A DNA stretch of 64,000 bases from an uncultured Planctomycetales bacterium (GCA_964467905.1 CAYXSY010000002.1:13545-77544); one strand, 5' to 3'; shown: positions 26,971 to 59,968, counted from the stretch's first letter. Numbers and translations: made by a program. Notes: a model not told the origin generated them from the sequence alone.

Positions 26971-27022
26971 ACATGGTGCCAAGATCCCTCGTTTCACTCG
27001 GGATCGGCACTGACATACAAAA

Positions 27023-27042
27023 ATATGGTGCCGAGGGAGGGA
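27023..27042. repeat. distal att direct repeat (ATATGGTGCCGAGGGAGGGA)
   Basis: 20/20 identical to 59891-59910, which covers the last 17 nt of tRNA-Phe plus 3 nt. It is followed by a 9-bp inverted repeat CGAGGGAGG/CCTCCCTCG (27032-27058). Confidence 0.9.
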
Positions 27043-29452: not shown

Positions 29453-30703
29453 TTAGAGCTTGCTAAGCAGCATCCGCTCAGTCCGATCTACGGAATTAAG
29501 ATTCTGCATACTGAGCCCGGTTTCCCTTACCGGCCTTATGGCAGGCAAGTCTTTAGCCAGCACTATTGAGCCCTCCTCCAGGGAATTATCCGTGCTTAAT
29601 TGAAGCTGATTCTTAGCGTACATTAAAGGCTGCCGCTCATCCTGCGGAATGAATAAGTCGCAGGTAAACATAACCCCAGAGGCGTCCTGCGCCTGCGGTT
29701 CTGCATAGGTCCTGACTGTCCGGATATTCCTAAAGTCTACGCCACCGCTAAAGTAGTGCCTGGTTACGGCATAAAATGGTCCTGATAAATAGTCGTTTTC
29801 AACAAACGAATACTCTCCTTCTTTTAAGGACTTAAGGTAATCTTGGTAAACCTGCTTAGGAGCATAGGTATCGCTTGCTTCTATGCCTACTAGGGCATTA
29901 TAGCTGGCCTGCCTTAATAAGGGCTCGGTTGAAGGGCTGAACTTCTCTTTATACCACGCTGCCAGGATTAAGGCATTATACGCCTCCCTTAAATCCGCAT
30001 AGCCGTAGGATTCGTTTACTTTTCTGTTTAACTCAGGCAGAATCATCTCCTGCATAAGCTTAGAGGTAAAATTATCCATTTCTTCTTCTCTTTTGTCTTT
30101 TACCTTAGCTTTTCTGGAAAGATACGCCGGCTCAAGGCAGACTTTGAGTTTGGCTTTGATAATGGAGAATTGATTTCTCTCTTCGTAGACCGTTACTTCA
30201 TCCGGAACAATCCAAAGCCGGGTGGACACCGAGATTTTATCCATCACGCCCAATTCCTGGGCTTTCTTATAGATACGCTGCCAGAATTCCCGGCCGGTTT
30301 TAGAGTTCTGCGGATTGGTCAGTTTCGCAGCATCTTCTTTTAACCTCAAATCGGCCTTAAGCATAACCCTGCCAAAGTCGGTCTCGCCTAAAATAGAGTC
30401 AACAATCCTGTTTGGCTCATCAGGATTGAGGTTAACCCAGAATACCTCTTGAGATAAGCCTAGGCTCACAAAAAAATACTCTAAATTATTCTGCACGGCT
30501 TTTCTAGCATCCAGGATCGGTTCAAAGTTACCGGGTTTTCTGCCCCGGATAACAAACCTTAAGTGATTAACCTTTCCTTGGCTGTCTACAACCAGCGAGC
30601 TAAAGACTGTCGAGCTTACCTCTGGCTCTTTTACATCTTCGCTAAAGGCAAAGGAAGCAGTAAGAAAAAACCCTAAAATAATCAGGAAAAGTATTTTCTT
30701 CAT
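29453..30703 (-). CDS. secreted protein of unknown function, translationally coupled to the giant ORF
   Basis: Signal peptide MKKILFLIILGFFLTASFAFS. Its start overlaps the giant ORF stop by 1 nt. Confidence 0.65.
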   Translation of the reverse strand: MKKILFLIILGFFLTASFAFSEDVKEPEVSSTVFSSLVVDSQGKVNHLRFVIRGRKPGNFEPILDARKAVQNNLEYFFVSLGLSQEVFWVNLNPDEPNRIVDSILGETDFGRVMLKADLRLKEDAAKLTNPQNSKTGREFWQRIYKKAQELGVMDKISVSTRLWIVPDEVTVYEERNQFSIIKAKLKVCLEPAYLSRKAKVKDKREEEMDNFTSKLMQEMILPELNRKVNESYGYADLREAYNALILAAWYKEKFSPSTEPLLRQASYNALVGIEASDTYAPKQVYQDYLKSLKEGEYSFVENDYLSGPFYAVTRHYFSGGVDFRNIRTVRTYAEPQAQDASGVMFTCDLFIPQDERQPLMYAKNQLQLSTDNSLEEGSIVLAKDLPAIRPVRETGLSMQNLNSVDRTERMLLSKL

Positions 30704-42700: not shown

Positions 42701-45462
42701 ATTGATAACGCCGCCTTCCAGCCGCTGTTTAAACCTTTCCACCAATTGGCAGCGTATTCCCTAAATTCAGGATGCTTCTCTTCGGCTTGGGTAACCTGCT
42801 GTTCTGCGGTATCAAAACGTTTCTCCAGATCAGATACCTTTTGCTCTAAAGATTGGCTATCTTGCTCAAGAGAAGAGATTCTTCCTTCGGCTTTTTTCTG
42901 CTCAACAGTAAGATGCTCCACTGCCTGCTTGGCTGCTTGGTTTTCCTGCTGGGCTTGAGATAACTGATGTTCTACTTCTACCAGGCGTTTCTCGGTTTGG
43001 GATTTATCTTCTCTTTGAATAGACGCAGGCGGAGTTTCGGGCGCTTGCGACTGTGAAGGAGCTGTAACCTTAACCGGCACTTCAGGCGCAGGAGTTTTTT
43101 CAGGCTGGGCAGACGCGGTTGTAACTTGCGGTGTCTGCTGCACAGGAGTTACAACCGTAGGTTGTACTTCAGTCCTGCCTAAAAGCTTATTTGCTGCCTG
43201 GGTATCTAAGGTGGGTAAAGTTACCGGCTGGTTTGGACGAAGCAAATTAGGATTAGCCAGATTATTGACGCTGGCAAGCTGTTCAACTATACCGTCCCTG
43301 CCGTAAAGTAAGGCTGCGGTAGGCTTCTTGCCCTGCGCCAACAAAACATCCCTGCCAATGCCGCCTAAAGTATCTTCTGCCGGCGTATCCCTATGCCAAA
43401 CCTGCACAATTGCCTGGGGCGCGCCTTCCGGGTTAGCGGCAAAATAATGCGCGGCAGCCGGCTGGGAGGTAAATAAAATTGACGCGATGGCTAAGCTTAA
43501 GAAAATCTTTCTCGCCTTTTTCTTAAAGGCAGTTAAGGCCTGACTTAAATAACCTGGCTGGATTGAGGTAGACACTGTTACCTGGATGTCTTTGGGCTTA
43601 GTTGGCTCCTTGGCAATGAGTGATGTTTTATCTTTCCGCGGCTGGCGGGGAGTTATAGGCGAAGAGGATTCTTTTTGTTCTTTTTTGGCAATAACCGTTG
43701 CGGGCGCAAATTCTCCTAAGGCAAGCTCGACTGCTTTTTGGTCTTCGGCGGATAATCTTAATCTGGATAATTGCGCCTGAATTTCTCTGGTTGGGTAATA
43801 TCTGGTTGAACGGGCAATCCAGTAGTTAATCAGAACCTGGCGGGCTTGCGGATCCGAAATACTGTTAATAATCTGTAAGGTGTCGGGATCGTTTAAAACA
43901 TCCTCTAAAGGAAGCTTTTTGTCTTTAAGGTAGGAAAAATAAACGGTTTCTTTATCCTGGCTCGCCTTAATATTAGGAGCAACGACAACATATGAGATAT
44001 CTTTCTCCTTTAGGATTGAGGTAATACCTTGGGTATGAAAACCGCCGGCAACCAAGATCAGTGAATTTGCGCTGTAGTCGCGGTTCATCCTGTTTAACGA
44101 ATTGCCGACCATAGCTTTATCCCGGTCATAAGCAAGGGAATAGAATTTATCCAAAGAGGCGATATCTCCATCCGTAGGTAGAGAGCTTAAAACCCTGGAG
44201 TTGGTGTATTTCTTTAAGGTTAAGATAAGGTTCTTGGAATTAAAGGCACCGCGGTTCTTTTTGAAATACTCATAGTCCTTGGGAGAAAGGTTGATACTGG
44301 AAAGCCCTTTGAGGATGCGTATTATATAGGTAAGGGAATCCAGGTCCTTTTGCACGGAATTGGTAATCAGCTTTTCCTTTAAGGCCTGGGTAAAATCATC
44401 AACCTCGGCAAAGAGCCTAGAGTTATCCAGGTTTTCTGATAGGCGAATGTATTTAATATAAGAGAAAAGGTTATTGTAGGCGCTTGTAGGAATTTTTGCT
44501 TTATCAGTCAATTCTTCAAGGTAAGTATAGTATTCAGCCGGTTTGATTTTATCTACCTTAAAATCAAGGCTCTTTTTAACCAGTTCCTCTAAGTCAGATT
44601 TGGATAGGGCTTTCGTTAGAACATCAATCAACTGCTGGCGTTCGATTTCCGCCTGGTCAAAGTTAATCCTAGTTTCCAGTTCTTGCAAGCTGATGATCCG
44701 GGAAAGATTCGGATATTCGGAAAGATTAAAGTTATTGATAATTGAGGCTATATTTAGGTAAGAAAGATACTCCTCTAGAGAAATCCTCCCCTCCTTAAAG
44801 TCGGAACTACGGGAATCAAGCTCTTTTAGGTCCTTAGAGTAGTATTTATTCTTTAGGGTAGTGATGACCTCTTCAATTACCCCGAAGCTTGGGTTTAGGG
44901 ATTCGGAAATGCGCTGGTTGTCCTTAAAGGCATTCAGGTGGCTGGCGTAGAGCTCTTTATCCTCTGCGCCGTAGATAACCGGGGGCTTGTCTTCGGTGAT
45001 TAGAAGATAATCCGTGCCTGAGATAAAGGCCTTGGAGAGAAAATACTTGGCGATTTTCTCGCGTATCTTTTTATCTTTGGGGAAGCTTCTGAAAAAATCA
45101 GCGTCAAACTCGCCGAACCCGCCTTCAACCGAAACCAGGTTCGCCTTATATTTATCCTTTAGGTATTTAATAAGCCGGGATTCGTTTTCCTGCGCCTCTG
45201 GATTGGCATGGGCGTCCTGAATATGAATCACTAAACGCGAGGAATTGTATTTTGAAGTATAGGAATCCTTAATTACGCCTAACTCTTGGGGGATATCGAT
45301 TGCGGAAGGATTGCTTTGTTCGGAAGGCTGCCAGGATTTCGAACCTAAAACCTCACCTGCCTTGGCCCAGGAAAGATCATATGCAAGAAAGCAGACAATC
45401 AAAACAATACAGATTGTTTTAATGAATATTCTTAATTTTTTGTGCGCCTGCCAATTTAACAT
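30703..45462 (-). CDS. giant multi-domain membrane protein (4,919 aa)
   Basis: Uninterrupted 14,760-nt frame with an ATG start. At least 7 hydrophobic segments. Approximate nt ranges: N-terminal domain with IHIQDAH and AGGFH motifs (43990-45290); LysM-like segment (43210-43410); ~640-aa coiled coil (41070-42990); HAD domain 1 FDIDDTL (40230-41050); HEAT-like repeats and a poly-Pro tract (38020-40090); two ~880-aa repeated modules, each ending in a HAD domain (32520-37950); LOG-like Rossmann domain (31620-32080); unknown C-terminus. Confidence 0.85.
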   Translation of the reverse strand: MLNWQAHKKLRIFIKTICIVLIVCFLAYDLSWAKAGEVLGSKSWQPSEQSNPSAIDIPQELGVIKDSYTSKYNSSRLVIHIQDAHANPEAQENESRLIKYLKDKYKANLVSVEGGFGEFDADFFRSFPKDKKIREKIAKYFLSKAFISGTDYLLITEDKPPVIYGAEDKELYASHLNAFKDNQRISESLNPSFGVIEEVITTLKNKYYSKDLKELDSRSSDFKEGRISLEEYLSYLNIASIINNFNLSEYPNLSRIISLQELETRINFDQAEIERQQLIDVLTKALSKSDLEELVKKSLDFKVDKIKPAEYYTYLEELTDKAKIPTSAYNNLFSYIKYIRLSENLDNSRLFAEVDDFTQALKEKLITNSVQKDLDSLTYIIRILKGLSSINLSPKDYEYFKKNRGAFNSKNLILTLKKYTNSRVLSSLPTDGDIASLDKFYSLAYDRDKAMVGNSLNRMNRDYSANSLILVAGGFHTQGITSILKEKDISYVVVAPNIKASQDKETVYFSYLKDKKLPLEDVLNDPDTLQIINSISDPQARQVLINYWIARSTRYYPTREIQAQLSRLRLSAEDQKAVELALGEFAPATVIAKKEQKESSSPITPRQPRKDKTSLIAKEPTKPKDIQVTVSTSIQPGYLSQALTAFKKKARKIFLSLAIASILFTSQPAAAHYFAANPEGAPQAIVQVWHRDTPAEDTLGGIGRDVLLAQGKKPTAALLYGRDGIVEQLASVNNLANPNLLRPNQPVTLPTLDTQAANKLLGRTEVQPTVVTPVQQTPQVTTASAQPEKTPAPEVPVKVTAPSQSQAPETPPASIQREDKSQTEKRLVEVEHQLSQAQQENQAAKQAVEHLTVEQKKAEGRISSLEQDSQSLEQKVSDLEKRFDTAEQQVTQAEEKHPEFREYAANWWKGLNSGWKAALSILAAFGAGLGFMRLYVYRKWSRIRELRDDIRRRQADKDRLDEEIDASQEQLAAVRADLERSQRALEEAEQKRKVQEEVLAKTQARSDTLETTPSGDDSLRQAIEQLEREVASRKSTIAKEISDEEGRLSRLRKELENLEKEHRHYEERIAQLQSQAKALEDELRVLEQTKASQEAQIQEETASARSQLAETQQAVLKAQQNLSALAVNLESLQVKKKESEDALVSLEGKKDALEKELSGLSRQQEELVQAIADLNSRKEELARQQQALDQAVDDRQKELADLERKIKGLETKGAREDTQIVSLKERKKNLETEISKLSQDISGLYKERGQSAQETERLRTYLSALEKQKQESEAAIHAFEDDRRNLSAEVSALQAQHRDLAAEVRRIEQNAASFQQDSQTKTASLDAETAQRQRQLEELRTKAASLAAQKTQLEQELSDLSRRKQQETQALEQALKQKQEIEERIASLNTQLEEVRQEVSNLTVHLDELKAREVSLDTEVPALTRKREALEEETSRLQRTKEELEQRVSVFSAEVRPAGVKPTPLELAKPYSVMMFDIDDTLTNTVTDIDRSMLGELIVFLEKGAYIVLISMQGKDEIYKHIVEPFYSYYGAKKELLERLIIYTAGGAECYRFDKGGNIFKEKAYDPLKNSVFEKEIPGDDDHDKEWNQAFVEDAVKARLAEHGYRNINLTNVRQNPLKRHGAITISVRKQEDRSKVSAILTDLFSEKGWHLQPRSGGRHTVHVLIGGVNKATAAEHSLRIIEHDAGAKIPYEQVFFAGDSFSAGGLDTDVISVLPGGHIVSVGRKPERDVLKNLQKLGIVFSEDLVGERNWPATYKILLEIEKGKRINDIGKDRSSDSGFGKVLRSILPVMFATFSFFPSFVSYADYVTVSPEARAQIERAVIVADTKSEDSLTESLDAVFTQYNYENDIAKINKAIELIRSKKVSDSRIIKVLQWVIVEADTSDNKFYPDTTLQASLALMDLGSSGQEALAKILRNPELLNKAVRLLKVLDAVSKTKSHSTAILDSLQWLAFKAYAGRETYDADVVRTVAAILLSDGGTNRIIDSLTPENYLARCILPAVFEAIKDSNVSDQGLISKLYWIVTDAVLEGGYYLDGTIPPAARALYRIKTNEALNKFKRALSRSDWRGRDGAAEAIIAIATEQGERVTPEVKTALEQVVALGSGHDFRQIAVRKAKALLEKIPLKPGSGKVEMVELAPLEVSKPIPHPPVPPPPPKTKVITTPAPAPAAAEPITLGMYQENPQKVIQILDQIVSNRDDNLTEKTKQVLLYSNADRSVHPDVIKKAVSILSSYYGGRLTLAELFTSENYQNNPAALLTVINALSSDVLEKPNLSIGENFLKALARIVIEPSSGGNYYPDINSAAINKLDELCQGSYSSSRWILLEPFTPENYRDKPAQLALVIDALSKKDHALTGAVTEKLVWVVRYQEPDGSQNVALAKTAMQALRKCPNYVSSDLIMGVNPIDFFIECLPHPDEEIRLIAVNELVERKVPKNKIEPVFQSESIAARDAARQILESLYPETKGTMFLSEEEARSSLFSYEKHHSAAQALRDFNQDKPWKEKVPAYLLSYLANTYIWLSVLLGIGSVILAITLVNLNHQVNKVYKRLLAYAGSTTFRERLTLKRIAVSLAYRESYGMYDPAGLIARNLPSISKTSKIKQIEKLALFLDKLNKSGFNSQYILEHGVPLVSRIAKDEAEFDKGLALLESLAAGLKLYNVDIRTVNLEANNLGKLIDSLAVFEAVCGFIKGSVSQNKQALSELLTAVVPDAFKGAKDANVKVERLGIIRQLVLGGLHPTRLLIETLQKTTSQSQASEQIAQWKKLLSDFKSGAVRFDPNNPLHVDLEYNTYRALAPQVSLSTSYKDYKEFIKGFHSSTGSASSLGNQEAGEIRLAVYEAYRLLEFIIAVKQKADKLGRPVWVVPNLSYGKFAVSPILDELARLGIEIHYAKVGSTECHNNPQLVKQGLFTDDVYQRILRERPVIIAVDGTKHLLARPNERKSSRYPDAYVGYRNLIVAVDDVLSGGNADAFHDRVRISTDFLNQLRQNSSDYNTLVSKLKTLASDSGQDVPLYRLEFWNPGGLQLVIREARQEVQNVTPFDPEHLDSPALIFINSPLLDEDIPKDIKKWSGLEGTHEPAFFDDRGQIQQNALAVNGRGLYLTHALEFETTRASQQLKGFYKGKLPQVEYKEPTPEAVRNTYEAMLFDLDGTLTDTLKDIDKALLDKLIYLLSSGVIIGIVTSQSLDEVREHILDRVDVDKKQHLGNLFLYANRGVQLYNFDGKANPILVSDRSQTDVTGEQCALIRNLINQALGTLNGSVKVIDRGAQLSIHLDKHKDKRDLVNTTLVQLIAANNLPFQTEYSGTSTIHVVLKGADKGSAKDNFLGQVFPSRLNRPVDLSKLLIVGDRFAQAGSDQPMVTAGARVVSVGKEKGLPAGVEDYPHHGWRGTDQLLGEIIHRAGSTTVSSPLSAFIGSLSLPDLWQSFGASLEGLYDASKMPLLYAGIATLGLAFIFVSTVSAIKLYKTGRLYREIIRAVSFLERKERIFLFREISRHVSWKKIQSIEPYQLFINMLPVLSKGIQDKRIQEINNAAARLRKAKINPRHVFKYCLPAISAKAGDEKQFANSLNLAERFALTLQDKHYDYHELLKNIMPQVERNTRSIDELNEAMLLGINLLKSGRNPTFALAKMLPEVVNLTKDLSDFKLGIYALQELCLAGFEPTRYLLAELIKQGTKAKIDSAVLTWQEIRRKFKTGDVAFNPKNELHVNLEYTTFRELVDRTLKQTHRYSYAEYLEILKNFNNGAKHASVDGREKAEVKFAAYEAYRLREFILQVKRQADKMGRAVWVVPNLSYGRFAVSPLLRDLAKDGIEVHYARIGSSESHEHPTLVKPDLFSANLYDRILNEQPVIIVVDGTQHLLARPKDRKSGRYPDAYVGYRNLIIAVNDIVSRGQEQMFKRNVKTSGHFIRDLMKKGDYKTLRRRLLRLFDPTVKTRRYLYDVGFWNPGGLELVIREDRQEVRRVRAISADDVVQPAMIFVNSAMLDEDVPVFMRSWITKGKKMHHLPAYFDDTSHIQRLIFNVDATGVSLSDALNENVRREYGRIKGIYQQRLKIPAKPNDLVNLPYKAVVSDLDGTLANTLEEVPKPVMEKLLYLLGLGVQVAIVTTQSYKEVERYLLSQVPAQNKALLSNLTIYAATGSQAYGFDKHGNTLPQPLYNTAGSELAERQMQSWRKAIDSIFKEYGLDREAKNKKGQVVAGPARLIDAGSQIIIRLKERGFLRREIRKRLQAALGREQLPIVLKEIGRTSIRMTIKGVDKSIAVKYHLTTVCKDRFGFEPKPGEVLILGNSFEEDGDDRDMMLKSARVFSVGGRPFLHYLRGGISFYPQGGWQGSNQLLAEFINSLSSSPAETPKPQAKPELVKLNSFNFLPFLAAGGSGVLENTDPFTSFIVGCLAGIIATVLIFRNRIFASDRPENEEDFKEEPQPNVSAQSAKPREKTPALTVRPVRRVLKPYDFDSAAQGIREQYPGIRIGVIGATIPARGYSQKIGMELGRRLRRFVGEGGFVFTGGVAGVGVDVYRGALEESQGKDDRFFALLPEDMDADYEYSAFGPRKVETVHFGRDMFERRIGMGKVADVVIILNGRGGTLHEAIAALEAGRKVIALDYGGAGSLLYHARARNELHPGLIQQGLRPEYFENIVLADLDNIEEALGSLQQGQMASTTTPNFIPSVSPTPESIPQAQLDPFAKTFFTVNQSGNMGLSRNAIYAINSLSQAYSGLTLEVDVDTLIDTSKGAPQLKGLGFTEALASLYQAQEKKQIPKNLRVRLININPRLNKQKIIKVLGLTEDLLKKMVAIPDIPEDYLIKTLEPYLIAGSVRIIFEDNVRYWGKKVDVLVRRGEETQTLSSLGLIVAVLAKEPKFYASLPAEVKEYIAAKTDEKGNIELDDEGKIKEIIFKPIEKTKVDTQYLEELDKANKELEGMA

Positions 45463-50476: not shown

Positions 50477-52585
50477 TTACTCTGCTTTAGGGAATTCTAA
50501 AACAAAAGTAGTGCCTACCCCTACTTTGCTTTTAAATGAAATTTCGCCTTTATTTTTCCAGACCAACTGCCGCACTATTGAGAGACCCAACCCTGTACCC
50601 TTGGTACCTTTAGTGGTAAAAAACGGCTCAAAAACCCTATGTATTTTATCTTCAGATATACCTTTACCGGTATCCTGAATTTCAATGCGCACTTTTCCAG
50701 CTGGCGTGATAAATGCTCTTATAGTGATAGTTCCTGCCCTTTCAATAGACTGGCCTGCGTTACGGATAATATTAAATAAAATCTGCTGCGTTTCATGTTC
50801 ATCCGCCAAAATTTTGTTTGGATCAGTAGAGATTTCTTTAATTATCTTTATCCTTTCCAGCTCTAAATCGTGCCCTAATATGCCCAACGTATTCTCTATC
50901 TCCTGCGGAATACTGATTATTACCGGCTTGAATTCTTTCCCCGGCTTGGCAAAGTTAGAAAGTTTCTTGGTAATTTCTGCTATACGCTCGGTTTGTTTTA
51001 TGGTTTCGTCTAAGATAGCAACGCATTCTTCCATAATTTCTTCCTTGGGTTTGTCTTTATAAAAACCTCTCTGGACGGCAGTGCGGAATACCTGAATTTT
51101 CGTGTTAATGATATTCAGAGGATTTCCTATTTCGTGGTTTATCCCTGCTGCCATAGTGCCAATAGCAGCCCGGCGTTCTGCTTGAGCCGCCTCGGTCAAA
51201 AGCTGGGCATTGGCAACAGCGATTGATTCGGTGCGGGCAAGGTCCTGCAAAACATCCAAATCGTCCTTAGAATAATCCTCATCCGACTTCTTTTTGCCCA
51301 CAGAGATAAAACCGATTAAATCGCTGTGAAGCATTAACGGCAGCACGATGGTTGCTTTGAGGGAAGACATTTCAGCGGCAATTGCCGGGTTAACGCCGGC
51401 AATGCCGTTAACCTGCCTGATAACGGCGGGAAGCTGGCGATTCTTAAGGAATATAATCAGCTTTGATTCAGCGGTAAAAGCAAGGTCTTTACTTTCAAAC
51501 CCTAAAGAATCGTAGAGTTGGTATTTATCCTGGATTTTATTTAAAATAAAAACTGCGCAGGTATAAGGGTGCAGTGTCTCATCAAGCAGTTTTAGAGTCG
51601 AGCGGATAACGGTATCGAGGTTAAGCTCGGTTACCACATTATCAATAAAGGCCTTGATAATCTGTTTGTATTCATATTTTTTCTGGAAGAGAAACTTATC
51701 GGTAGCATTAATAAGCCAAGTTTCGGTGGGGCGTAGTGTAAAAACGATAATAAAAGCACTTATAGCAAAGGCAAGCAAGCTATTACCGCCAGCGATAAAC
51801 TGAGATATCAGAAGCGTCATTGCCACGAATATGCCAAAGGCGAAAGCGAACATCCCGGCGAAGACTACCGTCTTCTTGATAATTACCTCTATCTCCATCA
51901 ACTGATGACGGAAAATTGCATAGGCGGTAATTAAACAAAAGGCAATCATAAATGTAAAACCAAAAGGAGAAGTATTCAATGTTACATTGATGCCATAATT
52001 GGGCAAGAAATCAATTGCGGCGAAGGTACCTATTAAGCCCGAGAAAAATATATATTTCCTTTTTGTCGCCTCGTGCGGAGAGATATCTTTTCTCTTCCAG
52101 AAAGAAAAAAACATAATAAGCAATGCAGCAGTAAAATAAAAATTGAAATATAGAAGAAACAGTAAGTGGCTAGGGATAAAAACCTTCGGATAATAACCCC
52201 AAGGATAAGTGAATAGATCCACTATGAACCATTTTTGCGTAAAAACGATTGTCCCAAAGAATAAAGCGCATAAATATCCCCAAAATACCAATCTGCTCAA
52301 TTTTCTATTTTGGTTGCCTAAAAAACACATTTCAAAGTGATACCATACAATAGGAATGAATATTACCCCCAAATATCCAATTTTAAAGAAAAACAGGCTG
52401 GTAATTTTTTGGTCGGATAGATATGCTAAACTGTAAGAAAATAACCACACAAAAATAGTCGTGCAGAAAAAGAAGAAGATTTTATTTATCTGCGACCCTT
52501 TGGCTTTCTTCAATACAAATAAACCCAAGATTAATACTAGGAGCGAAGAAATTAAAGTAGAGAAAAAGGGAAGGTTAAAATTCAT
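50477..52585 (-). CDS. sensor histidine kinase (multi-TM N-terminus, GAF-like domain, HisKA, HATPase_c)
   Basis: About 7 N-terminal TM helices. H-box NHEIGNPLNII, N-box FNIIRNAGQS, G1 IQDTGKGI and G2 GTGLGLSIV. Confidence 0.9.
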   Translation of the reverse strand: MNFNLPFFSTLISSLLVLILGLFVLKKAKGSQINKIFFFFCTTIFVWLFSYSLAYLSDQKITSLFFFKIGYLGVIFIPIVWYHFEMCFLGNQNRKLSRLVFWGYLCALFFGTIVFTQKWFIVDLFTYPWGYYPKVFIPSHLLFLLYFNFYFTAALLIMFFSFWKRKDISPHEATKRKYIFFSGLIGTFAAIDFLPNYGINVTLNTSPFGFTFMIAFCLITAYAIFRHQLMEIEVIIKKTVVFAGMFAFAFGIFVAMTLLISQFIAGGNSLLAFAISAFIIVFTLRPTETWLINATDKFLFQKKYEYKQIIKAFIDNVVTELNLDTVIRSTLKLLDETLHPYTCAVFILNKIQDKYQLYDSLGFESKDLAFTAESKLIIFLKNRQLPAVIRQVNGIAGVNPAIAAEMSSLKATIVLPLMLHSDLIGFISVGKKKSDEDYSKDDLDVLQDLARTESIAVANAQLLTEAAQAERRAAIGTMAAGINHEIGNPLNIINTKIQVFRTAVQRGFYKDKPKEEIMEECVAILDETIKQTERIAEITKKLSNFAKPGKEFKPVIISIPQEIENTLGILGHDLELERIKIIKEISTDPNKILADEHETQQILFNIIRNAGQSIERAGTITIRAFITPAGKVRIEIQDTGKGISEDKIHRVFEPFFTTKGTKGTGLGLSIVRQLVWKNKGEISFKSKVGVGTTFVLEFPKAE

Positions 52586-53682
52586 AGGCTCTTTCTTTTA
52601 AGAAAGTTACTCTTAAAACAATACTCTATCATTTTCTCAACGTCTTCCGTAAGAATTCGTGGAAATTCAAAGCTAAGCTTATCCAAAACCTTAAGCGTAG
52701 AAGCGGAATCTATTTTTGTAAGACAAATGGTGTTGAAAAGAAGTGATTTTTTGGTAAGCATCCTTTTAGATGGGCTAATTTCATCTAAATCATAACCCCA
52801 GTCAACTCTTTGCGGTCTGTCAAATCCGATATAACGCTTTGCTATTTCAAAGAAATCTACGGTTGAAATTGGCGCATCTCCAAACAAGTGGTAATTTTTA
52901 TTAACGGCGCTAGAGCTGTTGGATATTAAACAGATGGCTTTGGCAACTAAGTCAACCGGAGATAAATTAAGCGGAACTTTTTTTATAGGAAAAACATCTA
53001 AAGTCTCTTGGCTCCAGAGACGTAATAGCTGGTAAACGTGATCGAATTTCGGTGTATTACCCACAGCCGATTCTCCAATAATAGCCGGTGGCCTAAAAAC
53101 ATCTACCCAAAGCCCTTTTTTCCTAAACTCCGCAACCAATAACTCTGCCTCAAACTTACTTTGTTCATAAGGCGTATTGAACTTCTGTTTTACATCTAAA
53201 TCATTTTCTGTAAATGTTCCGTTGTAGTCACCGCAAATATAAACGGAACTTATATGATTTATTTTTTTTAGTTTTCCTGTCTTATTCCAGTCTAACCCAA
53301 ATTCAAGAATTCTTTTCGTTCCCTCAACGTTGACCTCCTTAAGCTGCTCTGGCAATGCGTTGAAATGGGTTTCCGCTGCGCAATGAAATATTTCTTCGAC
53401 TTCTTGCGCTAAAGATTTTAATATATTTTTTTCTATACCCACTTCCTCTTTTGTAACATCACCTTCAATAACAACTAAATTATTGTAGCTGCTTACCGCC
53501 ATATTGTGATCCCAAAACCCTAAAGCTTTTTCTATTCTTAAATCTGCGCTATCTTTGTTCAACTCCCTCGAAAGCGCGTATACTCTGTAGTTTCTTTCAA
53601 GTAAAACTTTTAACAAATATGAACCTAGGAAACCGGTGCCGCCGGTTAATAATACTGTCTTTTTATGAAGTTTGTCATCCAT
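52582..53682 (-). CDS. SDR-family thioester reductase / NAD-dependent epimerase-like protein
   Basis: VLLTGGTGFLGSYLL Rossmann motif, a YxxxK site (YEQSKFEAE), and a layout like stand-alone thioester-reductase (NAD_binding_4) proteins. Confidence 0.75.
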   Translation of the reverse strand: MDDKLHKKTVLLTGGTGFLGSYLLKVLLERNYRVYALSRELNKDSADLRIEKALGFWDHNMAVSSYNNLVVIEGDVTKEEVGIEKNILKSLAQEVEEIFHCAAETHFNALPEQLKEVNVEGTKRILEFGLDWNKTGKLKKINHISSVYICGDYNGTFTENDLDVKQKFNTPYEQSKFEAELLVAEFRKKGLWVDVFRPPAIIGESAVGNTPKFDHVYQLLRLWSQETLDVFPIKKVPLNLSPVDLVAKAICLISNSSSAVNKNYHLFGDAPISTVDFFEIAKRYIGFDRPQRVDWGYDLDEISPSKRMLTKKSLLFNTICLTKIDSASTLKVLDKLSFEFPRILTEDVEKMIEYCFKSNFLKRKSL

Positions 53683-53690
53683 GTTTGATT

Positions 53691-53868
53691 ATTATTTTGC
53701 TTCCGCCCGCTTATCCAGCCACTCTTCCATCTTTTCTTTTCTAAAACGCCAAACTCTGCCAATTTTCACCGCGGGGACTTTTCTTTTTTGCGCTAAGCGA
53801 TACAGCGTGCCGTGATGAACATTTAAATAGTTGGCTGCTTTTTCTATGGTCATTAGCTTCTCACTCAT
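53691..53868 (-). pseudogene. excisionase-family HTH gene split across two frames (needs a +1 shift near 53821-53828)
   Basis: Frame A from ATG at 53868 gives MSEKLMTIEKAANYLN and then runs off-pattern. Frame B gives VHHGTLYRLAQKRKVPAVKIGRVWRFRKEKMEEWLDKRAEAK*. Joined, they match the full excisionase HTH pattern. Confidence 0.5.
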
Positions 53869-53889
53869 GGCACCTCTATCCTTTATGGG

Positions 53890-54300
53890 CTATTCTTTGG
53901 GCAATATCGAGGCAACCCAATGATAAAATCTACTGGACTGCTTTGCCATTTCCCGCGCCTCATCCTGAAATACGTTTCGCCTTTCATACTGAACCATGTT
54001 TTTCTTGGCAATAACTTTCCTCAAAGACTTTGCCTTATCCTTAGCTTCAGAGAAAGTAAGCGAGGCAACGAGGTCACAGACATCAAAATGGTCATCTGAA
54101 ACCGACCGCACCCCTTTTTCGAAAACACAAAGCGCATCCGCCGAAGAGATAGCGCACTGAATGGCTAACGTCGCAGCGGCATTGTAATTATTACTCTCTA
54201 TCGCTTTAAGCATCTGCTGGTAATTATCCGCTGCTTTCTTTAAATAGTCGGCTGCAGCGCTTTTGTCTTCCTGCTTGATTTTAATCTCTCTTGGAGCCAT
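53890..54300 (-). CDS. HEPN-like protein (putative toxin partner of the adjacent nucleotidyltransferase)
   Basis: All-helical 136-aa protein with a HEPN-like core (AAATLAIQCAISSADALCV). It lies 3 nt downstream of the MNT gene. I do not see a clear Rx4-6H motif. Confidence 0.55.
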   Translation of the reverse strand: MAPREIKIKQEDKSAAADYLKKAADNYQQMLKAIESNNYNAAATLAIQCAISSADALCVFEKGVRSVSDDHFDVCDLVASLTFSEAKDKAKSLRKVIAKKNMVQYERRNVFQDEAREMAKQSSRFYHWVASILPKE

Positions 54301-54303
54301 AGC

Positions 54304-54948
54304 CTACGTGAGCTCAAAAGGCTCTTTTCCAAAAATTACGGTGTATGACTTTAATAAAGTTGAGACGGGAGATAACCGTTTTTTCATTCTGCGCGCGAAT
54401 TCATCTCTCGACTTAATATAAGCATCCAAATGCGCGCCAAAGCATTCGTTAAATTCACTTGTTATGCCGCTAACAAACTTCTCTTCTATTTCTTTAACAT
54501 CGCCTCTGTTTTTAACTACTACCGCGATATCAACATCGCTGCCTGCCGCCGCCTGGCCGCGCTGAACACTGCCGTAAAGCATTAGAGAGTCAATCTTGTC
54601 TTTCAGGCGCGACTTCGTAAGCTCCCTGATCAGAAAGTTGCCTATATCTTCTTTCAAGGCGGACTCTTTCTTAAAACTCGGCCTTAGAATGTCTTTTACT
54701 ATTCTGTTCTTGACATTGAGGGCATAGATATGCTGCTTACCGATAATCTCCAATTTGAGGACATTTTGGCTGTACAGGCCTTTTAAGGCGGCATGCGTAG
54801 CAGGCGGGGAAACCCGGATCAGCTTGGCAATTTCCCTTCCGGAAGCCCTGAAATTATCGGTTCGGGAGGCAAAAAGCCGCATAATCTTTAATTTGCTTGC
54901 CGTATTCAAGATTATATCTAAACTGTTCTCTATCGCCATAATCGCCAT
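54304..54948 (-). CDS. winged-helix domain fused to a minimal nucleotidyltransferase (MNT) domain
   Basis: LYGSVQRGQAAAGSDVDIAVVV is the GSxxRG...DxD NTase motif. The N-terminal ~90 aa look like a wHTH (SGREIAKLIRVSPPATHAALKGL). Confidence 0.8.
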   Translation of the reverse strand: MAIMAIENSLDIILNTASKLKIMRLFASRTDNFRASGREIAKLIRVSPPATHAALKGLYSQNVLKLEIIGKQHIYALNVKNRIVKDILRPSFKKESALKEDIGNFLIRELTKSRLKDKIDSLMLYGSVQRGQAAAGSDVDIAVVVKNRGDVKEIEEKFVSGITSEFNECFGAHLDAYIKSRDEFARRMKKRLSPVSTLLKSYTVIFGKEPFELT

Positions 54949-55018
54949 AGCTATTGTTTTATTGAGTTAACACTTGTTAAGTTACATTAACAGATTTCGC
55001 GCCTTCTGTCAACATATT

Positions 55019-55155
55019 TTTGCTCCCAAGCACTTAAAGCTGCTTTTTGCGGTCTGCCTTCGCCCTCTTCTACAACTTCCTTCGCGAAGGCAACCGCATG
55101 TATTAAGCGAAAATCACCCAGCCCAGCCGCCTGAAGCAGCCAAAAACAAAAAGGC
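55019..55155. repeat. left copy of a 137-bp inverted repeat
   Basis: Its reverse complement equals 58891-59027 at 136/137 positions (A at 55146 pairs against C at 58900). It contains an internal 12-bp palindrome CCTTCGCGAAGG. Confidence 0.95.
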
Positions 55156-55183
55156 TTCGATACTGTAATTATTGCACCCTTTA

Positions 55184-55312
55184 TCACTTAGCTGGCTTCT
55201 GAGGATTAGGCTTGCTGGGAGGAGGAGGCGGAGGCGGAGGTATAATTCCTTTTGTTGGCCTAGGGACACTAGGCGGAACTTTTCCTGTAGTACGCGACTT
55301 ATTTTCGCTCAT
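55184..55312 (-). CDS. 42-aa proline-rich peptide (below the ORF-track cutoff)
   Basis: MSENKSRTTGKVPPSVPRPTKGIIPPPPPPPPSKPNPQKPAK, with an AAAGGAGAG Shine-Dalgarno 7 nt upstream. Coding status is uncertain. Confidence 0.25.
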   Translation of the reverse strand: MSENKSRTTGKVPPSVPRPTKGIIPPPPPPPPSKPNPQKPAK

Positions 55313-55326
55313 CTTTTAGCTCTCCT

Positions 55327-55764
55327 TTATTTAAAAGGCAAATTTAAATAACTAAAAATAACCAAGGAAGCGACACCTAGAGTAAATAAAATAATGGATA
55401 AATAGTTACAGCACGTTGTCATGAATGAGAAATTATTCTGTTCTTTTTGCTTATCCTCCAACAATACTTTCTCGCATATCTCAACTTGTTTTCTAAAAGC
55501 TACCTGGCTCAATAAAAATGAGATTAATGTAGAGAGGGCGCTTAAAGAGAATAATAGCCAAGCAGACAGAATCCACCCACGTGTATCTACTCTTGGGTTA
55601 GGTGCAATTTGATTAATAAAAGCAATGGATATACCAAGCGCGCCGGCTGATAGCGTAAGAATTGCGCGATCAAAATGTTCATACATAGACTGTTCTGCTT
55701 TTATAAGATCTTTCCTCTCTTCTAAATATATCTTATATTCCTCATTTTCTAATTTTTCTGGCAT
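55327..55764 (-). CDS. membrane protein of unknown function (3 TM)
   Basis: Three hydrophobic helices after a charged N-terminus. Confidence 0.5.
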   Translation of the reverse strand: MPEKLENEEYKIYLEERKDLIKAEQSMYEHFDRAILTLSAGALGISIAFINQIAPNPRVDTRGWILSAWLLFSLSALSTLISFLLSQVAFRKQVEICEKVLLEDKQKEQNNFSFMTTCCNYLSIILFTLGVASLVIFSYLNLPFK

Positions 55765-55873
55765 AATCAGCTCCTTAGGATAACTTAATTAGTCTATTTA
55801 CTCCCTTTTAGTAATATTATAGCACTATTTAAAGCTATTTGAACCCCTTTATGTTTACCTCGCGCCAAACTTT

Positions 55874-58114
55874 CTATAACGTATACTTAACTATGCTTCC
55901 GATAAGCTTATTCCTTTCTTTTTCGTCAAACAAAAACTCATGGTTTGCGATTCTAGCAAGACCACCCCGTAGGAAGATTACGCTCTTTTTAAAAGGCAAC
56001 CTTAAAAATATGTTCTCTGAGATATAGTTCTTCTTGGCGGTATAAATAGAGCCTGCGCCTGTTCTTAGGCCATCAATCATGCCTTGTTGGGAAATTAGGG
56101 TATCCTTGGCCTGGTAGGTAGTCTGGCCGGTCTTACCGGACCAGAATTCAGCGTCTTTGGGATCTTCCTGCAAGAAAATAATCTTGGTTGCGGTATTGGT
56201 AAAGATAGCATTCTCGAATGCCGCTGATACGCTGGATAAATTTCCCCGAGATTGATTGGAGAGCACCAGACAAAAGTTAGCGCTCCTGACCTTGGAGATC
56301 ACATCTACAAAATGCGAACAGGCCAAATTCTGGAACTCATCGATGAAGACAAAGTATGGCGGATCAATCTCTTGCCTGACCACGGCCTGGGCTTTTAAAT
56401 CAATAATCAGCATCCTACCAATTGCTTCGGCTAGACGCGTATTCACTTGGCTTTTTAATGCAAAGAAGATGATGTCGCCGTTTTTAATCACTTTGGCTAA
56501 ATTAAGTTCGTCTTTATTCAGGGCATCCAGGCCAGCGATGCAGGAAATCGCCGCAAATAATCCCTTAACCTCTTGGCTGCTTACATTCAGCGCCTCGAGA
56601 AAATATGGGTCCTCAAGGGCGTTTCTAACCGTAAAGAAATTTATCTCTTTTTTCTCATCGGTCATTTCCTTTAATAAATCTACAAAAGCCATGGTCTGGA
56701 CATTGGAGTAAAAGCCTGCCGGGCCGTGGTAAACCAGCTCTAATGCGTTCATAATCCGGTCTACCTTGGAATGGATATCTCCCGAAGACAGCGGATTATA
56801 TCCTATCGATGACTCATCCGGGTCAATGCTGAAATAATAGAATTTCTTACCCTTTTCCCCGGCTTTTTGCTGGACGTATTTCTTAAATACTTCATCCCCC
56901 TTAAAATCTACGAAACAGCATCCCCTGCCTTTTTCTATTGCCTGCTTGGCCAAAGGCAGAATTATCAACGACGTCTTGCCGCTTCCGGTAGGCCCTAAGA
57001 CGTGCAGATGATGGCTAAGCATTTTTTCTTCTGCTACAATATCGCCTTTATCATCGCCCAAGCCAAGGAAATATTTATCGGTGTTGGTGTAGCGCGCTAT
57101 TTTTTTATTAATATCGTAGCTGGCCTTCTTAAATTCGACGGTTTCGATAGAGAGTTCTTTCTTTTTCTCAAGGTCCTTATCTATCTTGTAGAAATCTTCC
57201 AGCTTACGCCTCTGGCGTGGCAGGACGTGCCGGGTGAAGTAAATATACCCGAGATAACCAAGCAGGATAACCGATAAAACCAAAGCCAAAACCAAAAACC
57301 ACCTGCCTTCTTTTAAAATAAACCCGTGCCAGAAGCTCCACTGGATAACCTGCCAGCCTTCATTACTGAAGGCTAGACTCGGGTCATGAAAACCGATCCT
57401 GCCGAACCAATAGCTGAATACCCAAAGCAGATAATAACCCCAAAGTTTAATGCTCTTTAACTGATAAGCGATAAACAAAACCGATAGACCGAATAACCCC
57501 AAGATATCATTAGGTATTAAGCCACGGGAAAATACCCGCCCCATCCTTGAGGATAAAAGTACAGTCTCAGAGTAAAGCCAGGGGTATTTTTGCTCTATCT
57601 TTGCCGGAAACAGATAATCTTTGAGCTTTTTTAGATCCTCTGTACGATTGGTGTTTTTTAAGAAATCAGAGAATTGGTCGATAGTTAAAAAACCTATGTT
57701 TTTACCCGGCTCTTTAAGCTGGCGACAAGCAACCTGAGAATATCTGCCGGTAAGCAAAAAGGTCTTTTTCCAACCGTAAGGATTGGTTTTCATATAGGCA
57801 GGCGGAAACTCAAAAAACCAGGTTTCCGGCAGGACAAAATAGCCGTGTATTTTTAAAGGGGTTGAGTCTTTGTCAGCATCCTTTGGCTGCCCTGGCGGCA
57901 CAACCATTACCAAGGCATCGGTTCCGAAGGTCTCCTTTAAGGATGAGCCCAAAAGATGCGTTTTCATTACTGCCGGGATATCCTGATACGAGCCGAAAGT
58001 AATAAATTCAGTCCCGTAATGAACCCCTACCCACCAGCCAAAGCCGATGTAAATAAGCGGAATTGCGATTAAAAACCGCCAACAAAGAGTACCGAAACTA
58101 ACATTCTTCTCCAT
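55874..58114 (-). CDS. type IV coupling protein-like ATPase (VirD4/TraD/TraG family)
   Basis: N-terminal polytopic membrane domain, Walker A VLGPTGSGKTS, Walker B YFVFIDEFQNL, and a LVLSNQS sensor-like motif. Confidence 0.8.
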   Translation of the reverse strand: MEKNVSFGTLCWRFLIAIPLIYIGFGWWVGVHYGTEFITFGSYQDIPAVMKTHLLGSSLKETFGTDALVMVVPPGQPKDADKDSTPLKIHGYFVLPETWFFEFPPAYMKTNPYGWKKTFLLTGRYSQVACRQLKEPGKNIGFLTIDQFSDFLKNTNRTEDLKKLKDYLFPAKIEQKYPWLYSETVLLSSRMGRVFSRGLIPNDILGLFGLSVLFIAYQLKSIKLWGYYLLWVFSYWFGRIGFHDPSLAFSNEGWQVIQWSFWHGFILKEGRWFLVLALVLSVILLGYLGYIYFTRHVLPRQRRKLEDFYKIDKDLEKKKELSIETVEFKKASYDINKKIARYTNTDKYFLGLGDDKGDIVAEEKMLSHHLHVLGPTGSGKTSLIILPLAKQAIEKGRGCCFVDFKGDEVFKKYVQQKAGEKGKKFYYFSIDPDESSIGYNPLSSGDIHSKVDRIMNALELVYHGPAGFYSNVQTMAFVDLLKEMTDEKKEINFFTVRNALEDPYFLEALNVSSQEVKGLFAAISCIAGLDALNKDELNLAKVIKNGDIIFFALKSQVNTRLAEAIGRMLIIDLKAQAVVRQEIDPPYFVFIDEFQNLACSHFVDVISKVRSANFCLVLSNQSRGNLSSVSAAFENAIFTNTATKIIFLQEDPKDAEFWSGKTGQTTYQAKDTLISQQGMIDGLRTGAGSIYTAKKNYISENIFLRLPFKKSVIFLRGGLARIANHEFLFDEKERNKLIGSIVKYTL

Positions 58115-58868
58115 CGTTATCCCTCCCGATTCGGTTAATTGCTTCGGTTATTAAACATACCTCGCCTTGATAAAAACAGCCCCCTTGGGCTAACAAATCA
58201 AAGCTGGTCAGAATAAATTTTCTTTCAAAAAGATCCGGGGCGATAATCTGAAATTTCTCCTTTAGATACTCGTAGTAGGTCTTTGAAGCAGCGATAACTA
58301 ATGCGCCCGAGTACTTGGAAATCTTGTCAATGTCGTACTTGTAAAAGCCGGCCAAGCGTTTAAGGATTTTTAGGTTCTTGGGAGTGGTTTCTATCTCCAA
58401 GGCTAGATGCTGACCGCTGGCAAGCTTAAGCAAGCCGTCAGGCACCTTATATTGTTTGCGTGCGCCGGTCCTTAAAACCCCTTCCGGAATCCACTCTTTT
58501 ATCTCTAGGCATCGCCTAAGCAGAAAATAGCTCTCTACCAGGGCATTGTGATGCTGAAAAGTATTAATCCCGGCGTGAGTTTTTTCAAAGCGGTAATTGC
58601 CGATTAATGGCTCATCGGGCGAAAGAAAATCCTTGGCCTTCTGGGTTAGATAATAAATCTTGGCCTTAACTGAAAGCTCCTTATAAACGCTGATATAGCC
58701 GTCTTTAACAGTGTTATCTATCAACCATTGGGTTGAATTGATTTTGATAACCTCTTTAATGGAGGTGATTAAATGGCTCCTTAAGGCATATCTAAACATA
58801 TAAATAAAACGCAGCAATAGCTTAAGCCGCCTGTCGTGTTCTTCCTGGGTAAGTCTGCCTGTTTTCAT
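58098..58868 (-). CDS. hypothetical protein, possibly replication-relaxation family
   Basis: The call rests on position (overlaps the coupling-protein start), size, and an N-terminal wHTH-like segment. It is weak and based on context only. Confidence 0.35.
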   Translation of the reverse strand: MKTGRLTQEEHDRRLKLLLRFIYMFRYALRSHLITSIKEVIKINSTQWLIDNTVKDGYISVYKELSVKAKIYYLTQKAKDFLSPDEPLIGNYRFEKTHAGINTFQHHNALVESYFLLRRCLEIKEWIPEGVLRTGARKQYKVPDGLLKLASGQHLALEIETTPKNLKILKRLAGFYKYDIDKISKYSGALVIAASKTYYEYLKEKFQIIAPDLFERKFILTSFDLLAQGGCFYQGEVCLITEAINRIGRDNDGEEC

Positions 58869-58890
58869 ATCAAGCTATCCTCCTGTTTTT

Positions 58891-59027
58891 GCCTTTTTGC
58901 TTTTGGCTGCTTCAGGCGGCTGGGCTGGGTGATTTTCGCTTAATACATGCGGTTGCCTTCGCGAAGGAAGTTGTAGAAGAGGGCGAAGGCAGACCGCAAA
59001 AAGCAGCTTTAAGTGCTTGGGAGCAAA
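58891..59027. repeat. right copy of the 137-bp inverted repeat
   Basis: See 55019-55155. Confidence 0.95.
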
Positions 59028-59125
59028 GTAAATATTTAAAATTCGGTTTTCTCAATGAGTAAAAACTTAACTTATACGGCATAATAAGTTCCGTATAAGT
59101 TAAAATATCAAATACTCCTAGCTGC

Positions 59126-59707
59126 TTAAGCATTAATAACCACTCCTTCCAACATCTCTTTTACTACCTGCGGGTCAAAGCCTTTATCTACCAAGAAGCT
59201 GCTTGTTTTAGCCACGCCATTGACCCTAGCCCAGGCACGGATGTCCTTCTTTTGTTCCTCGGTAAAAGAAAAATTTTCGGGCGTATTGTTAATTTCATGC
59301 TTAATTACCTCCTTTATATTAAGGGTCCCATTTTGGGATGCTTTCAACACCGGATTGGCACCCTTTAGCGCCAAATTGGCACCCTTTGCGTCCGGGCCAA
59401 AGGGTCCCATTTTGGCATTCTTTCGAAGATTATCAAAACATCCCAATCTGGTATCCTTTAGCAGTATCCAATAGCGCGTAGGCGAACCCTTATGCTTACC
59501 GATCTGGTAATCTATTCTGCCTGCTGTTTTCAAGTAAATGCGCGCCCTTTGAATGGTGTTATCGCCAAGGTCTAAATAATCTTTTAGGTTCTTGTCAATG
59601 CAATAAAATGAGCCATCTGTTGCTAGCATTCTGCGTTCAGAGAAATATTTGTATTTCCCCTGTAACGCGATAAAAACTAACTTTGCTGCCGGTGTCATAC
59701 TCTTCAT
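59126..59707 (-). CDS. hypothetical protein with an N-terminal wHTH-like domain (possible replication or regulatory protein)
   Basis: GGGAGG Shine-Dalgarno. AKLVFIALQGKY...LGDNTIQRARIYLKTAGRI resembles HTH_36/DnaD-type wHTH domains. Iteron-like DNA repeats lie inside the gene. Confidence 0.4.
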   Translation of the reverse strand: MKSMTPAAKLVFIALQGKYKYFSERRMLATDGSFYCIDKNLKDYLDLGDNTIQRARIYLKTAGRIDYQIGKHKGSPTRYWILLKDTRLGCFDNLRKNAKMGPFGPDAKGANLALKGANPVLKASQNGTLNIKEVIKHEINNTPENFSFTEEQKKDIRAWARVNGVAKTSSFLVDKGFDPQVVKEMLEGVVINA

Positions 59708-59858
59708 TTTGCCTCCCGTTTTGAAACGCGATTTTGAGACTATATGAGACTATAACTTTTAAAAGGGCATAAAATCTGCCAAAAGCACCTAAAAGCCCCT
59801 AACAAACAAAAAAAGCGTAACTGCTTCAAAAATGAAGTAATTACGCTTAAATATAATG

Positions 59859-59884
59859 AAAAAGCGGGGTTACGAAAACCCCGC
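59859..59884 (-). terminator. rho-independent terminator just inside the element, immediately 3' of tRNA-Phe
   Basis: The minus strand reads GCGGGGttttcgtaaCCCCGC followed by TTTTT. Confidence 0.6.
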
Positions 59885-59890
59885 TTTTCT

Positions 59891-59910
59891 ATATGGTGCC
59901 GAGGGAGGGA
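59891..59910. repeat. proximal att direct repeat (3' end of tRNA-Phe)
   Basis: Identical to 27023-27042. Confidence 0.9.
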
Positions 59911-59968
59911 ATCGGACCCCCCACGCCGGCCTTTTCAGGGCCGCGCTCTACCACTGAGCTACCTCGGC
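59894..59968 (-). tRNA. tRNA-Phe (anticodon GAA), CCA encoded
   Basis: The minus strand reads GCCGAGGTAGCTCAGTGGTAGAGCGCGGCCCTGAAAAGGCCGGCGTGGGGGGTCCGATTCCCTCCCTCGGCACCA. This folds as a cloverleaf with anticodon loop CTGAAAA. The T-loop reads TCCGATT. Confidence 0.9.

Follow-up and report, generated by a model that had tools for sequence, protein, structure and literature searches.

The window analysed here is a stretch of 64,000 nucleotides (nt) from an uncultured Planctomycetales bacterium, in which a 137-nt inverted repeat, at 55019-55155 and 58891-59027, brackets a mobilisation (mob) cassette at one end of a genomic island. The right arm is the native region upstream of the relaxase gene mobC, and the left arm its inverted second copy. 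The interpretation we favour, still tentatively, is that the arms form an inverted pair of elements resembling origins of transfer (oriTs) in an integrative mobilisable element (IME), and that this pair is recombinationally active. The first-pass annotation of this DNA had offered an invertible segment, a nested transposon-like unit and paired oriT-like sites as options; the last fits best of the three, given that the arms are copies of a cis element upstream of mobC, in the position of a MOB_C oriT.

The inverted repeat and element E

A repeat search of the window returned two arms of 137 nt each, complementary at 136 of 137 positions and spaced 3735 nt apart. The sole mismatch is A at 55146 versus G at 58900, and the likeness ends abruptly past both the outer and the inner edges. 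A 52-nt core of the repeat occurs at only two sites in the window, in both arms, with none expected from 100 shuffles. The window was also compared with the public reads of run SRR15237811, as assembled independently from k-mers into Logan contigs. Three of these contigs are 100% identical to window 58998-59948, 52187-55048 and 55116-58930; contig breaks fall at all four repeat edges, always exactly 30 nt into the perfect repeat, and the contigs recover the A/G mismatch. Logan assembly uses k = 31, with which the 30-nt overhangs of the contigs are consistent. In a 97%-identical strain from another run, contigs likewise begin within the right arm. The repeat is present in the reads, as the first-pass annotation had described it, single mismatch included. 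Since both arms, the mismatch and the four edges are reproduced by independent contigs, and another strain breaks at the same point, the chance that the window's assembly produced the repeat is negligible. The repeat also accounts for the fragmentation of these regions in short-read assemblies.

The arms and their parts are as follows.

58891-59027 (-): right arm (IR-R), E(+), the native copy of E, an element conserved upstream of mobC; this copy stops 22 nt short of the mobC start codon (ATG)
55019-55155 (+): left arm (IR-L), E(-), a second, inverted copy of E that closes the mob cassette at its far end
58949-58997 (-): hairpin of IR-R, with a 14-15-nt stem in which GCGGTCTGCCTTCGC pairs with GCGAAGGCAACCGC, and a 20-nt loop with conserved CAAC
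55049-55097 (+): hairpin of IR-L, in which GCGGTCTGCCTTCGC at 55049-55063 pairs with GCGAAGGCAACCGC at 55084-55097, and within which the palindrome CCTTCGCGAAGG, already pointed out in the first-pass annotation, was located by reading the sequence at 55079-55090
59006-59021 (-): box 1, CCCAAGCACTTAAAGC, at the outer edge of E, with a mirror copy at 55025-55040

The label E denotes a conserved non-coding element of ~135 nt upstream of mobC. The right arm is homologous to the stretch directly upstream of mobC in every related locus, all of which are in Omnitrophota. In an alignment of 24 copies from Omnitrophota loci, E is conserved at the nucleotide level and comprises box 1 (CCCCAAGCACTTAAAGC), a hairpin and an AAATCAC box. 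The hairpin consensus is GCGGTxxGCCTTCG ... CGAAGGCxACCGC, with a ~20-nt loop containing a nearly invariant CAAC; 95.5% of the stem cells in the alignment are paired, with compensated changes at two positions. The E unit of the window folds approximately three standard deviations better than shuffles (z about -3).

The conservation is assigned to the nucleotide level because small open reading frames (ORFs) over E use different frames in different loci. For the same reason, the proposal that E is protein-coding, raised by a protein-like frame (LLQAAGLGDFRLIHAVAFAKEVVEEGEGRPQKAALSAWEQ), was rejected: the window and locus L022 use a frame shifted from that of the 'PKHLKLFACGKPS' ORFs called over E in other loci. 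A degenerate-codon pattern for frame LLQAAGLGDFRLIHAVAFAKEVVEEGEGRPQKAALSAWEQ found no match in 185,579 genomes. The first-pass annotation had dismissed the ORFs at 54987-55187 and 58912-59133 as spurious mirror images. They are indeed best read as non-coding, but both lie on the - strand and they do not mirror each other; the ORF at 54987-55187 (-) is mirrored at 58889-59062 (+), and the one at 58912-59133 (-) at 54974-55168 (+). Homologous elements do not share these reading frames, which makes a non-coding reading the best one for all four.

An Rfam scan of the whole window returned two tRNAs and one group I intron only, with no match in the arms. A promoter and terminator scan detected no strong sigma-70 consensus and no intrinsic terminator inside the arms, and its counts were not above those of shuffles. 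The repeat was not found in a plasmid collection by similarity search, the whole module was likewise without a match there, single exact-match patterns taken from the repeat gave no hit in species-representative genomes, and a pattern of box 1 plus stem had no match in viral contigs. The repeat is neither a transposon end nor a generic repeat present in many unrelated contexts, which the first-pass annotation had named as contrary evidence. Its right arm is the native mobC-upstream region, not foreign DNA, and its left arm is an inverted second copy of that region.

E is most likely an oriT. This reading is drawn from its place between the pore genes and the relaxase gene in loci with a type IV secretion system (T4SS), from its hairpin, and from its retention with mobC in stripped islands that have lost everything else. 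For MOB_C relaxases, oriTs have been reported between the mating-pair-formation genes and the relaxase gene (bioRxiv 10.64898/2026.01.13.699239). E probably overlaps the mobC promoter or operator as well.

The relaxase cassette and its relatives in Omnitrophota

On the - strand, from 59707 down to 55019, the gene order is w193, E, mobC, a VirD4-type ATPase, two small ORFs and the inverted E. The first-pass annotation had placed a coupling ATPase, a putative relaxation protein and a membrane protein between the arms, and these correspond to products of 746, 256 and 145 aa, to which a 42-aa ORF is to be added. The features on which the interpretation depends are listed below.

58098-58868 (-): mobC, 256 aa, with a predicted N-terminal winged helix and C-terminal PD-(D/E)xK nuclease, Replic_Relax / MOB_C type
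55874-58114 (-): VirD4/TraD-type coupling ATPase (type IV coupling protein, T4CP), 746 aa, full length, Walker A GPTGSGKT
59891-59968 (-): tRNA-Phe at 59894-59968, with a 20-nt attachment core at 59891-59910
27023-27042 (-): second copy of the tRNA-Phe 3' end, an exact 20-nt direct repeat (E-value 7e-6) that marks the island's far boundary
27113-28222 (-): tyrosine integrase, 369 aa, Phage_integrase domain (1e-30)

The window MobC has no Pfam hit at an E-value <= 0.01, and its similarity to the curated NCBIfam model NF041423 ('MobC family replication-relaxation') is weak, at 31.5 bits (E-value 1.1e-7) against a cut-off of 200. Among the aligned members of its family, 9/13 match PF13814 (Replic_Relax), with a best E-value of 1.2e-7. 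PF13814 represents MOB_C in CONJscan (PMC5357655) and has been assigned to the PD-(D/E)xK fold (PMC3424549). The AlphaFold model of MobC (mean confidence score, pLDDT, of 77) comprises an N-terminal winged helix and a C-terminal restriction-endonuclease-like domain. The best PDB matches of the C-terminal half are restriction and repair nucleases, namely EcoO109I (E-value 1e-4), Can2, NucS and PspGI, and those of the N-terminal half are MecI/MarR. Residues D144, E158 and E160 are invariant in the family, and K164 is present in at least 90% of members. The model and the family alignment place MobC as a MOB_C-type relaxase, with predicted nicking activity. All 13 genome loci with MobC relatives are in Omnitrophota. 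A cyanobacterial origin of the window, suggested by its group I intron, was discarded because the relatives of the T4CP, MobC and w193 were all from Omnitrophota.

The mobC and T4CP genes overlap. The T4CP matches the Pfam families TraG-D_C, TrwB_AAD_bind and T4SS-DNA_transf at 41.6, 32.2 and 32.1 bits, all above cut-offs, and its translation shows FVFIDEFQ in addition to GPTGSGKT. It has at least 120 relatives (clusters) at 63-73% identity, and nearly all of the named ones belong to Candidatus Omnitrophota, including Velamenicoccus archaeovorus.

The cassette lies at the tRNA end of a ~33-kb island at tRNA-Phe (27023-59910), which has the tyrosine integrase at its far end; this island is what the first-pass annotation had called an otherwise unique element. 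No T4SS pore family was found among the scanned ORFs of the island and window, the 4919-aa and 416-aa ORFs being left aside. The island thus combines features of an IME: an integrase and attachment repeats at a tRNA gene, its own relaxase and T4CP, and no pore genes found. We infer that it is an IME that would use a resident T4SS. F-like T4SS loci with the same E, of the helper type, occur in other Omnitrophota genomes, with none in the window.

Related loci fall into two classes. The T4SS-linked loci (n=12) carry one E each, between pore genes and mobC, in the order TraG_N, E, mobC, T4CP, small genes, TraL/E/K/B/V/C and secretin, and they encode a full F-like T4SS. In one of them (L009), a tRNA-Asn gene at 5269-5344 stands immediately upstream of TraG_N, which suggests that the T4SS-linked loci may themselves be integrated conjugative elements. 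The second class comprises islands that lack pore genes and adjoin tRNA-Ser, tRNA-Phe or tRNA-Glu, in the order tRNA, w193, E, mobC, variable genes, inverted E, and toxin-antitoxin or defence genes. The inverted E pair is contained within one contig at 10 distinct island loci, namely the window, L003, L020, L021, L025, L030, L035, L040, L043 and L049. The L019 contig begins inside an arm, and many short-read contigs of these loci terminate inside E, as is expected because E is a repeat. The arms measure 117-167 nt across loci; their outer edge falls a few nt from box 1 in seven loci, and their inner edge takes three positions, one of them 20 nt into mobC. On the sequences compared, the mirrored E layout appears to be the family design of tRNA-inserted mobilisable islands in Omnitrophota.

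The cassette interior varies. The 3.7-kb type of the window holds mobC, a full T4CP and two ORFs; a 1.9-kb type holds mobC, a 300-aa T4CP fragment with the membrane domain only and a 63-aa protein; a 5.8-kb type adds to the latter a 1199-aa gene; and a 1.4-kb type holds mobC and a 159-aa protein. An N-terminal T4CP membrane domain of ~300 aa, without the ATPase, is conserved in most tRNA-linked islands, the window with its full-length T4CP being the exception. The gene for this fragment was found in L003 (6083-6985), L019, L020, L022, L023, L025, L035, L040, L043 and L049, and it is followed by one for a 63-64-aa Imm_superinfect-like protein. A relative of the 1199-aa HTH_3 protein of the 5.8-kb cassette, 83% identical, occurs at 10001-13585 of L054/L055, in a chromosomal context without E.

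In a 121-column core, the two arms of the window show no differences, versus at least 44 to any other locus, and those of L040 show five, versus at least 14 to other loci. Recent duplication or ongoing gene conversion, as the first-pass annotation proposed, is hence a fair reading of the arm identity. The MobC and T4CP of the window are equally far from the main island group and from the T4SS-linked loci; in comparison with the main island group, MobC is 39-46% identical and E 36% different. The identity of the arms together with this deep divergence suggests either an old pair whose arms have been homogenised or more than one origin of the pair, with a shared outer edge. The arms of L043 are a mosaic, with 20 differences and resemblance to different lineages, and box 1 is a variant in the upstream arm of L021.

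Locus L036 is 90-95% identical to L021 on both sides of the cassette, which is missing in L036. At its junction, a 9-nt microhomology connects w193 and the initial 28 nt of E to the sequence just outside E(-). On this sequence evidence, the loss reads as an inverted-repeat-associated deletion and not as the excision of a transposon. The strain of L049 shows the standard order in four assemblies (L038, L049, L050 and L051): w193, E, mobC ... 1199-aa gene, E(-), AbiEii. In a further contig of the same strain (L039, 99.8-100% identity), what follows w193 and E is the end of the 1199-aa gene, in reverse. This join passes through a 136-nt perfect repeat, where a real inversion and an assembler error look alike, and further contexts of the 1199-aa gene examined for orientation yielded no extra junctions. 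Given the arm identity, the deletion, the mosaic arms and the possible inversion, the best reading is that the E pair is recombinationally active.

Competing explanations and known systems

Under the favoured reading of an inverted oriT-like pair, MobC would nick opposite strands at the two E copies, because the copies are inverted. Each nick would direct transfer away from the cassette, starting from either side. The excised circle could then be sent as either strand and in either direction, with the mob genes entering last, and an island that is not excised could send the flanking DNA on either side. Recombination between the E copies, either homologous or by a MobC-catalysed exchange between oriTs, would keep the arms alike, could flip the cassette and would occasionally delete it.

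Several points weigh against this reading. E could be just a promoter/operator or 5' untranslated region (UTR), and oriT databases do not connect it with nicking. The inverted pair does not seem to be required, as the T4SS-linked loci work with a single E and the island-like loci L022 and L023 are without a second copy. Several loci duplicate the first 20 nt of mobC along with E, and others are cut short on the inner side, which looks like segmental duplication with no precisely defined site. Resolved loci share one orientation in all but one contig (10/11). The window MobC itself falls under the Pfam and NCBIfam thresholds. Finally, the argument on the direction of transfer leans on the general rule that mob genes enter last, which may not extend to MOB_C.

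In an invertible on/off switch, the arms would serve to flip the cassette and thereby place mobC and the T4CP gene within or out of reach of read-through transcription coming from the w193 side. The genes are arranged as this would need, with w193, the cassette and the toxin-antitoxin pair all in the same direction, and the arms are long enough for homologous recombination. As with invertons and shufflons, inverted repeats surround a gene block and one related contig has the opposite orientation: L039, one of five assemblies of its strain, joins the w193 flank to the far cassette end, so that the inversion proposed in the first-pass annotation has one possible instance in its favour. The other resolved loci keep one orientation, and the L039 join may be an assembler error, as it runs through 136 nt of perfect repeat. 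Unlike invertons and shufflons, moreover, the system has no dedicated invertase: profile scans found none in or beside the cassette, and the nearest recombinase is the island integrase, 27 kb off. Recombinase-driven invertible segments generally have far shorter repeats than 117-167 nt. Each arm here copies the whole upstream element, so mobC would keep its own upstream region either way, and one orientation dominates. A switch is therefore considered unlikely.

Equally unlikely, in our estimate, is a functionless segmental inverted duplication, originating on one or a few occasions in the island lineage and kept similar by conversion from a selected upstream copy. Such an origin agrees with the 20 nt of mobC coding sequence included in the block of the L003 type, the inner truncation in L021 and L030, the missing second copy in L022 and L023, the intact island of L036 after loss of the cassette, and arms that drift or become mosaic, with 20 differences in L043. 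It agrees less well with the presence of the pair in two island lineages that are deeply diverged yet agree on its outer boundary to within a few nt, and with the hairpin, loop motif and AAATCAC box being kept in every second copy. Long inverted repeats are normally unstable, and their persistence suggests selection.

A lower probability still is given to a regulatory pair, in which E(-) would act as a convergent promoter, terminator or insulator, or the 5' and 3' copies would pair in the mob mRNA as a processing or stability stem. E does occupy the place of the mobC promoter and 5' UTR, and its unit folds better than shuffles. In addition, the TTGACA-17-TAATGT of the next operon lies 7 nt outside IR-L, and this promoter-like site, with its counterpart in L021 and L036, suggests that E(-) separates two transcription units. 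Against such a role stand the lack of an Rfam match and of a strong sigma-70 consensus or intrinsic terminator within the arms, the short and non-conserved ORFs from the duplicated mobC start, and the fact that near-identity over 137 nt is unnecessary for regulation.

Terminal inverted repeats of a nested transposon that brought the mobilisation genes, the remaining option of the first-pass annotation, would explain a discrete gene set between two near-identical inverted ends that is missing as a whole in a close relative (L036 versus L021), yet this is very improbable and, like the assembly artefact, effectively excluded: the four products between the arms have no transposase or recombinase match in Pfam and/or NCBIfam, the flanks, ...ACATATT and GTAAATA..., are unrelated and show no target-site duplication, the right arm is the ancestral mobC-upstream region, present in single-copy loci too, the empty site of L036 keeps 28 nt of E at a 9-nt microhomology join, and the repeat was not found in the plasmid collection, species-representative genomes or viral contigs by the searches made.

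The two oriTs of R6K lie in inverted repeats. Dual oriTs are known in R6K, pAD1 and ICEclc, with a single relaxase serving both at least in ICEclc (PMC5587640; PMC5714925; bioRxiv 10.64898/2026.01.13.699239), and the favoured reading likewise has two origins, here candidates, on one element. In contrast to these systems, the E copies tightly bracket the relaxase/T4CP cassette of a non-conjugative island, the layout characterises an entire family within an uncultured phylum, and its oriT role is read from sequence. The relaxase is of MOB_C type, whereas R6K and ICEclc use other relaxase families. The oriT2 of pAD1 has an inverted-repeat structure within one oriT, whereas the two E copies are several kb apart. 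TraX of pAD1, the prototype MOB_C relaxase, has a restriction-endonuclease active site, with no covalent intermediate detected (PMC12857230), and oriT-specific recombination or recombinase-like activity has been reported for it (PMC5587640; PMC5714925). TraX binds five direct repeats 70-120 bp from nic (PMC12857230), whereas no such direct-repeat array is evident in E.

A MOB_C relaxase with its own VirD4 is a known signature of some mobilisable plasmids and IMEs (PMC5704250). The island resembles the CloDF13 module (MobC and MobB) and class 8 of the streptococcal IMEs (MobC and VirD4) in having a MOB_C relaxase beside its own VirD4 and no pore genes (PMC5704250; PMC5357655). Streptococcal IMEs have serine integrases (PMC5357655), whereas the island has a tyrosine integrase, and no inverted upstream duplicate is described for the CloDF13 module or the streptococcal IMEs in the literature examined. 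Both the kind of element, an IME with a MOB_C relaxase and its own VirD4, and dual oriTs are hence already known. An inverted relaxase-upstream pair bracketing a mob cassette as an island-family trait was not found described in the literature searched, recent Omnitrophota preprints included.

Of the major relaxase families, MOB_C is the one least understood: a covalent DNA intermediate has not been observed for it, and how strands are recruited and rejoined is still open (PMC12857230). E is a candidate oriT of ~135 nt that is conserved, can readily be synthesised and has a defined hairpin and a loop motif, and the natural contrast between a single E and an inverted pair makes binding, nicking, polarity and oriT-oriT recombination directly testable. 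It is conceivable, though decidedly doubtful, that the inverted pair evolved to suit MOB_C chemistry, which is hydrolytic and non-covalent, either through bidirectional transfer or through a 137-nt panhandle whose fold-back would prime or repair the strand in the recipient. If so, the panhandle would replace the relaxase-mediated rejoining of HUH relaxases, a new form of conjugative DNA processing from an uncultured phylum. The loci also define an Omnitrophota family of tRNA-inserted mobilisable islands with defence or other cargo, one of which carries a 4919-aa gene, and the shared cis element E links these islands to the F-like T4SS loci of the phylum.

Neighbouring genes and further observations

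The remaining features of the cassette and its surroundings are listed below.

55327-55764 (-): hydrophobic (putative membrane) protein, 145 aa, no family match, in a strain-variable stretch
55184-55312 (-): 42-aa proline-rich ORF, called as a gene in a Logan contig; doubtful gene
59126-59707 (-): w193, a 193-aa winged-helix protein and marker of the tRNA-linked island class, always between the tRNA and E(+)
53890-54948 (-): nucleotidyltransferase/HEPN pair directly outside IR-L; DUF6088/AbiEii occupy that position in related islands

All genes around the cassette are on the - strand. In comparison with the 97%-identical strain, the sequence diverges completely just past the T4CP stop (L001 3035-3705 versus window 55156-55895), so that the stretch beside E(-) is strain-variable. 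The sigma-70-like TTGACA-17-TAATGT outside IR-L lies at 54984-55012 (-) and is aimed at the nucleotidyltransferase/HEPN pair; a TTGACA just outside E(-) is also present in L021 and L036. ORFs driven from the duplicated mobC start codon in E(-) would yield products of 6-34 aa, which are not conserved.

At the tRNA side of related islands, a LAGLIDADG-type homing-endonuclease-like ORF lies between tRNA-Ser genes upstream of the island in L021 (7669-8823) and L036 (100-363). In L029, a tyrosine-integrase-like gene (3147-4172) stands directly upstream of w193, where other loci have the tRNA gene.

The cargo of the window's island includes two-component genes and the 4919-aa ORF, at 30703-45462 (-), a giant gene carried by a putatively mobilisable island. 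Just outside the island's far repeat, at 26965-26990, there is a second, degenerate stretch resembling a tRNA 3' end, accompanied by a terminator-like hairpin and possibly left over from an earlier integration event. Housekeeping genes fill the first 26 kb of the window. The group I intron reported by Rfam lies at 12959-13163 (-), with a score of 50.3 bits, right at the gathering score, and with no ARAGORN tRNA around it.

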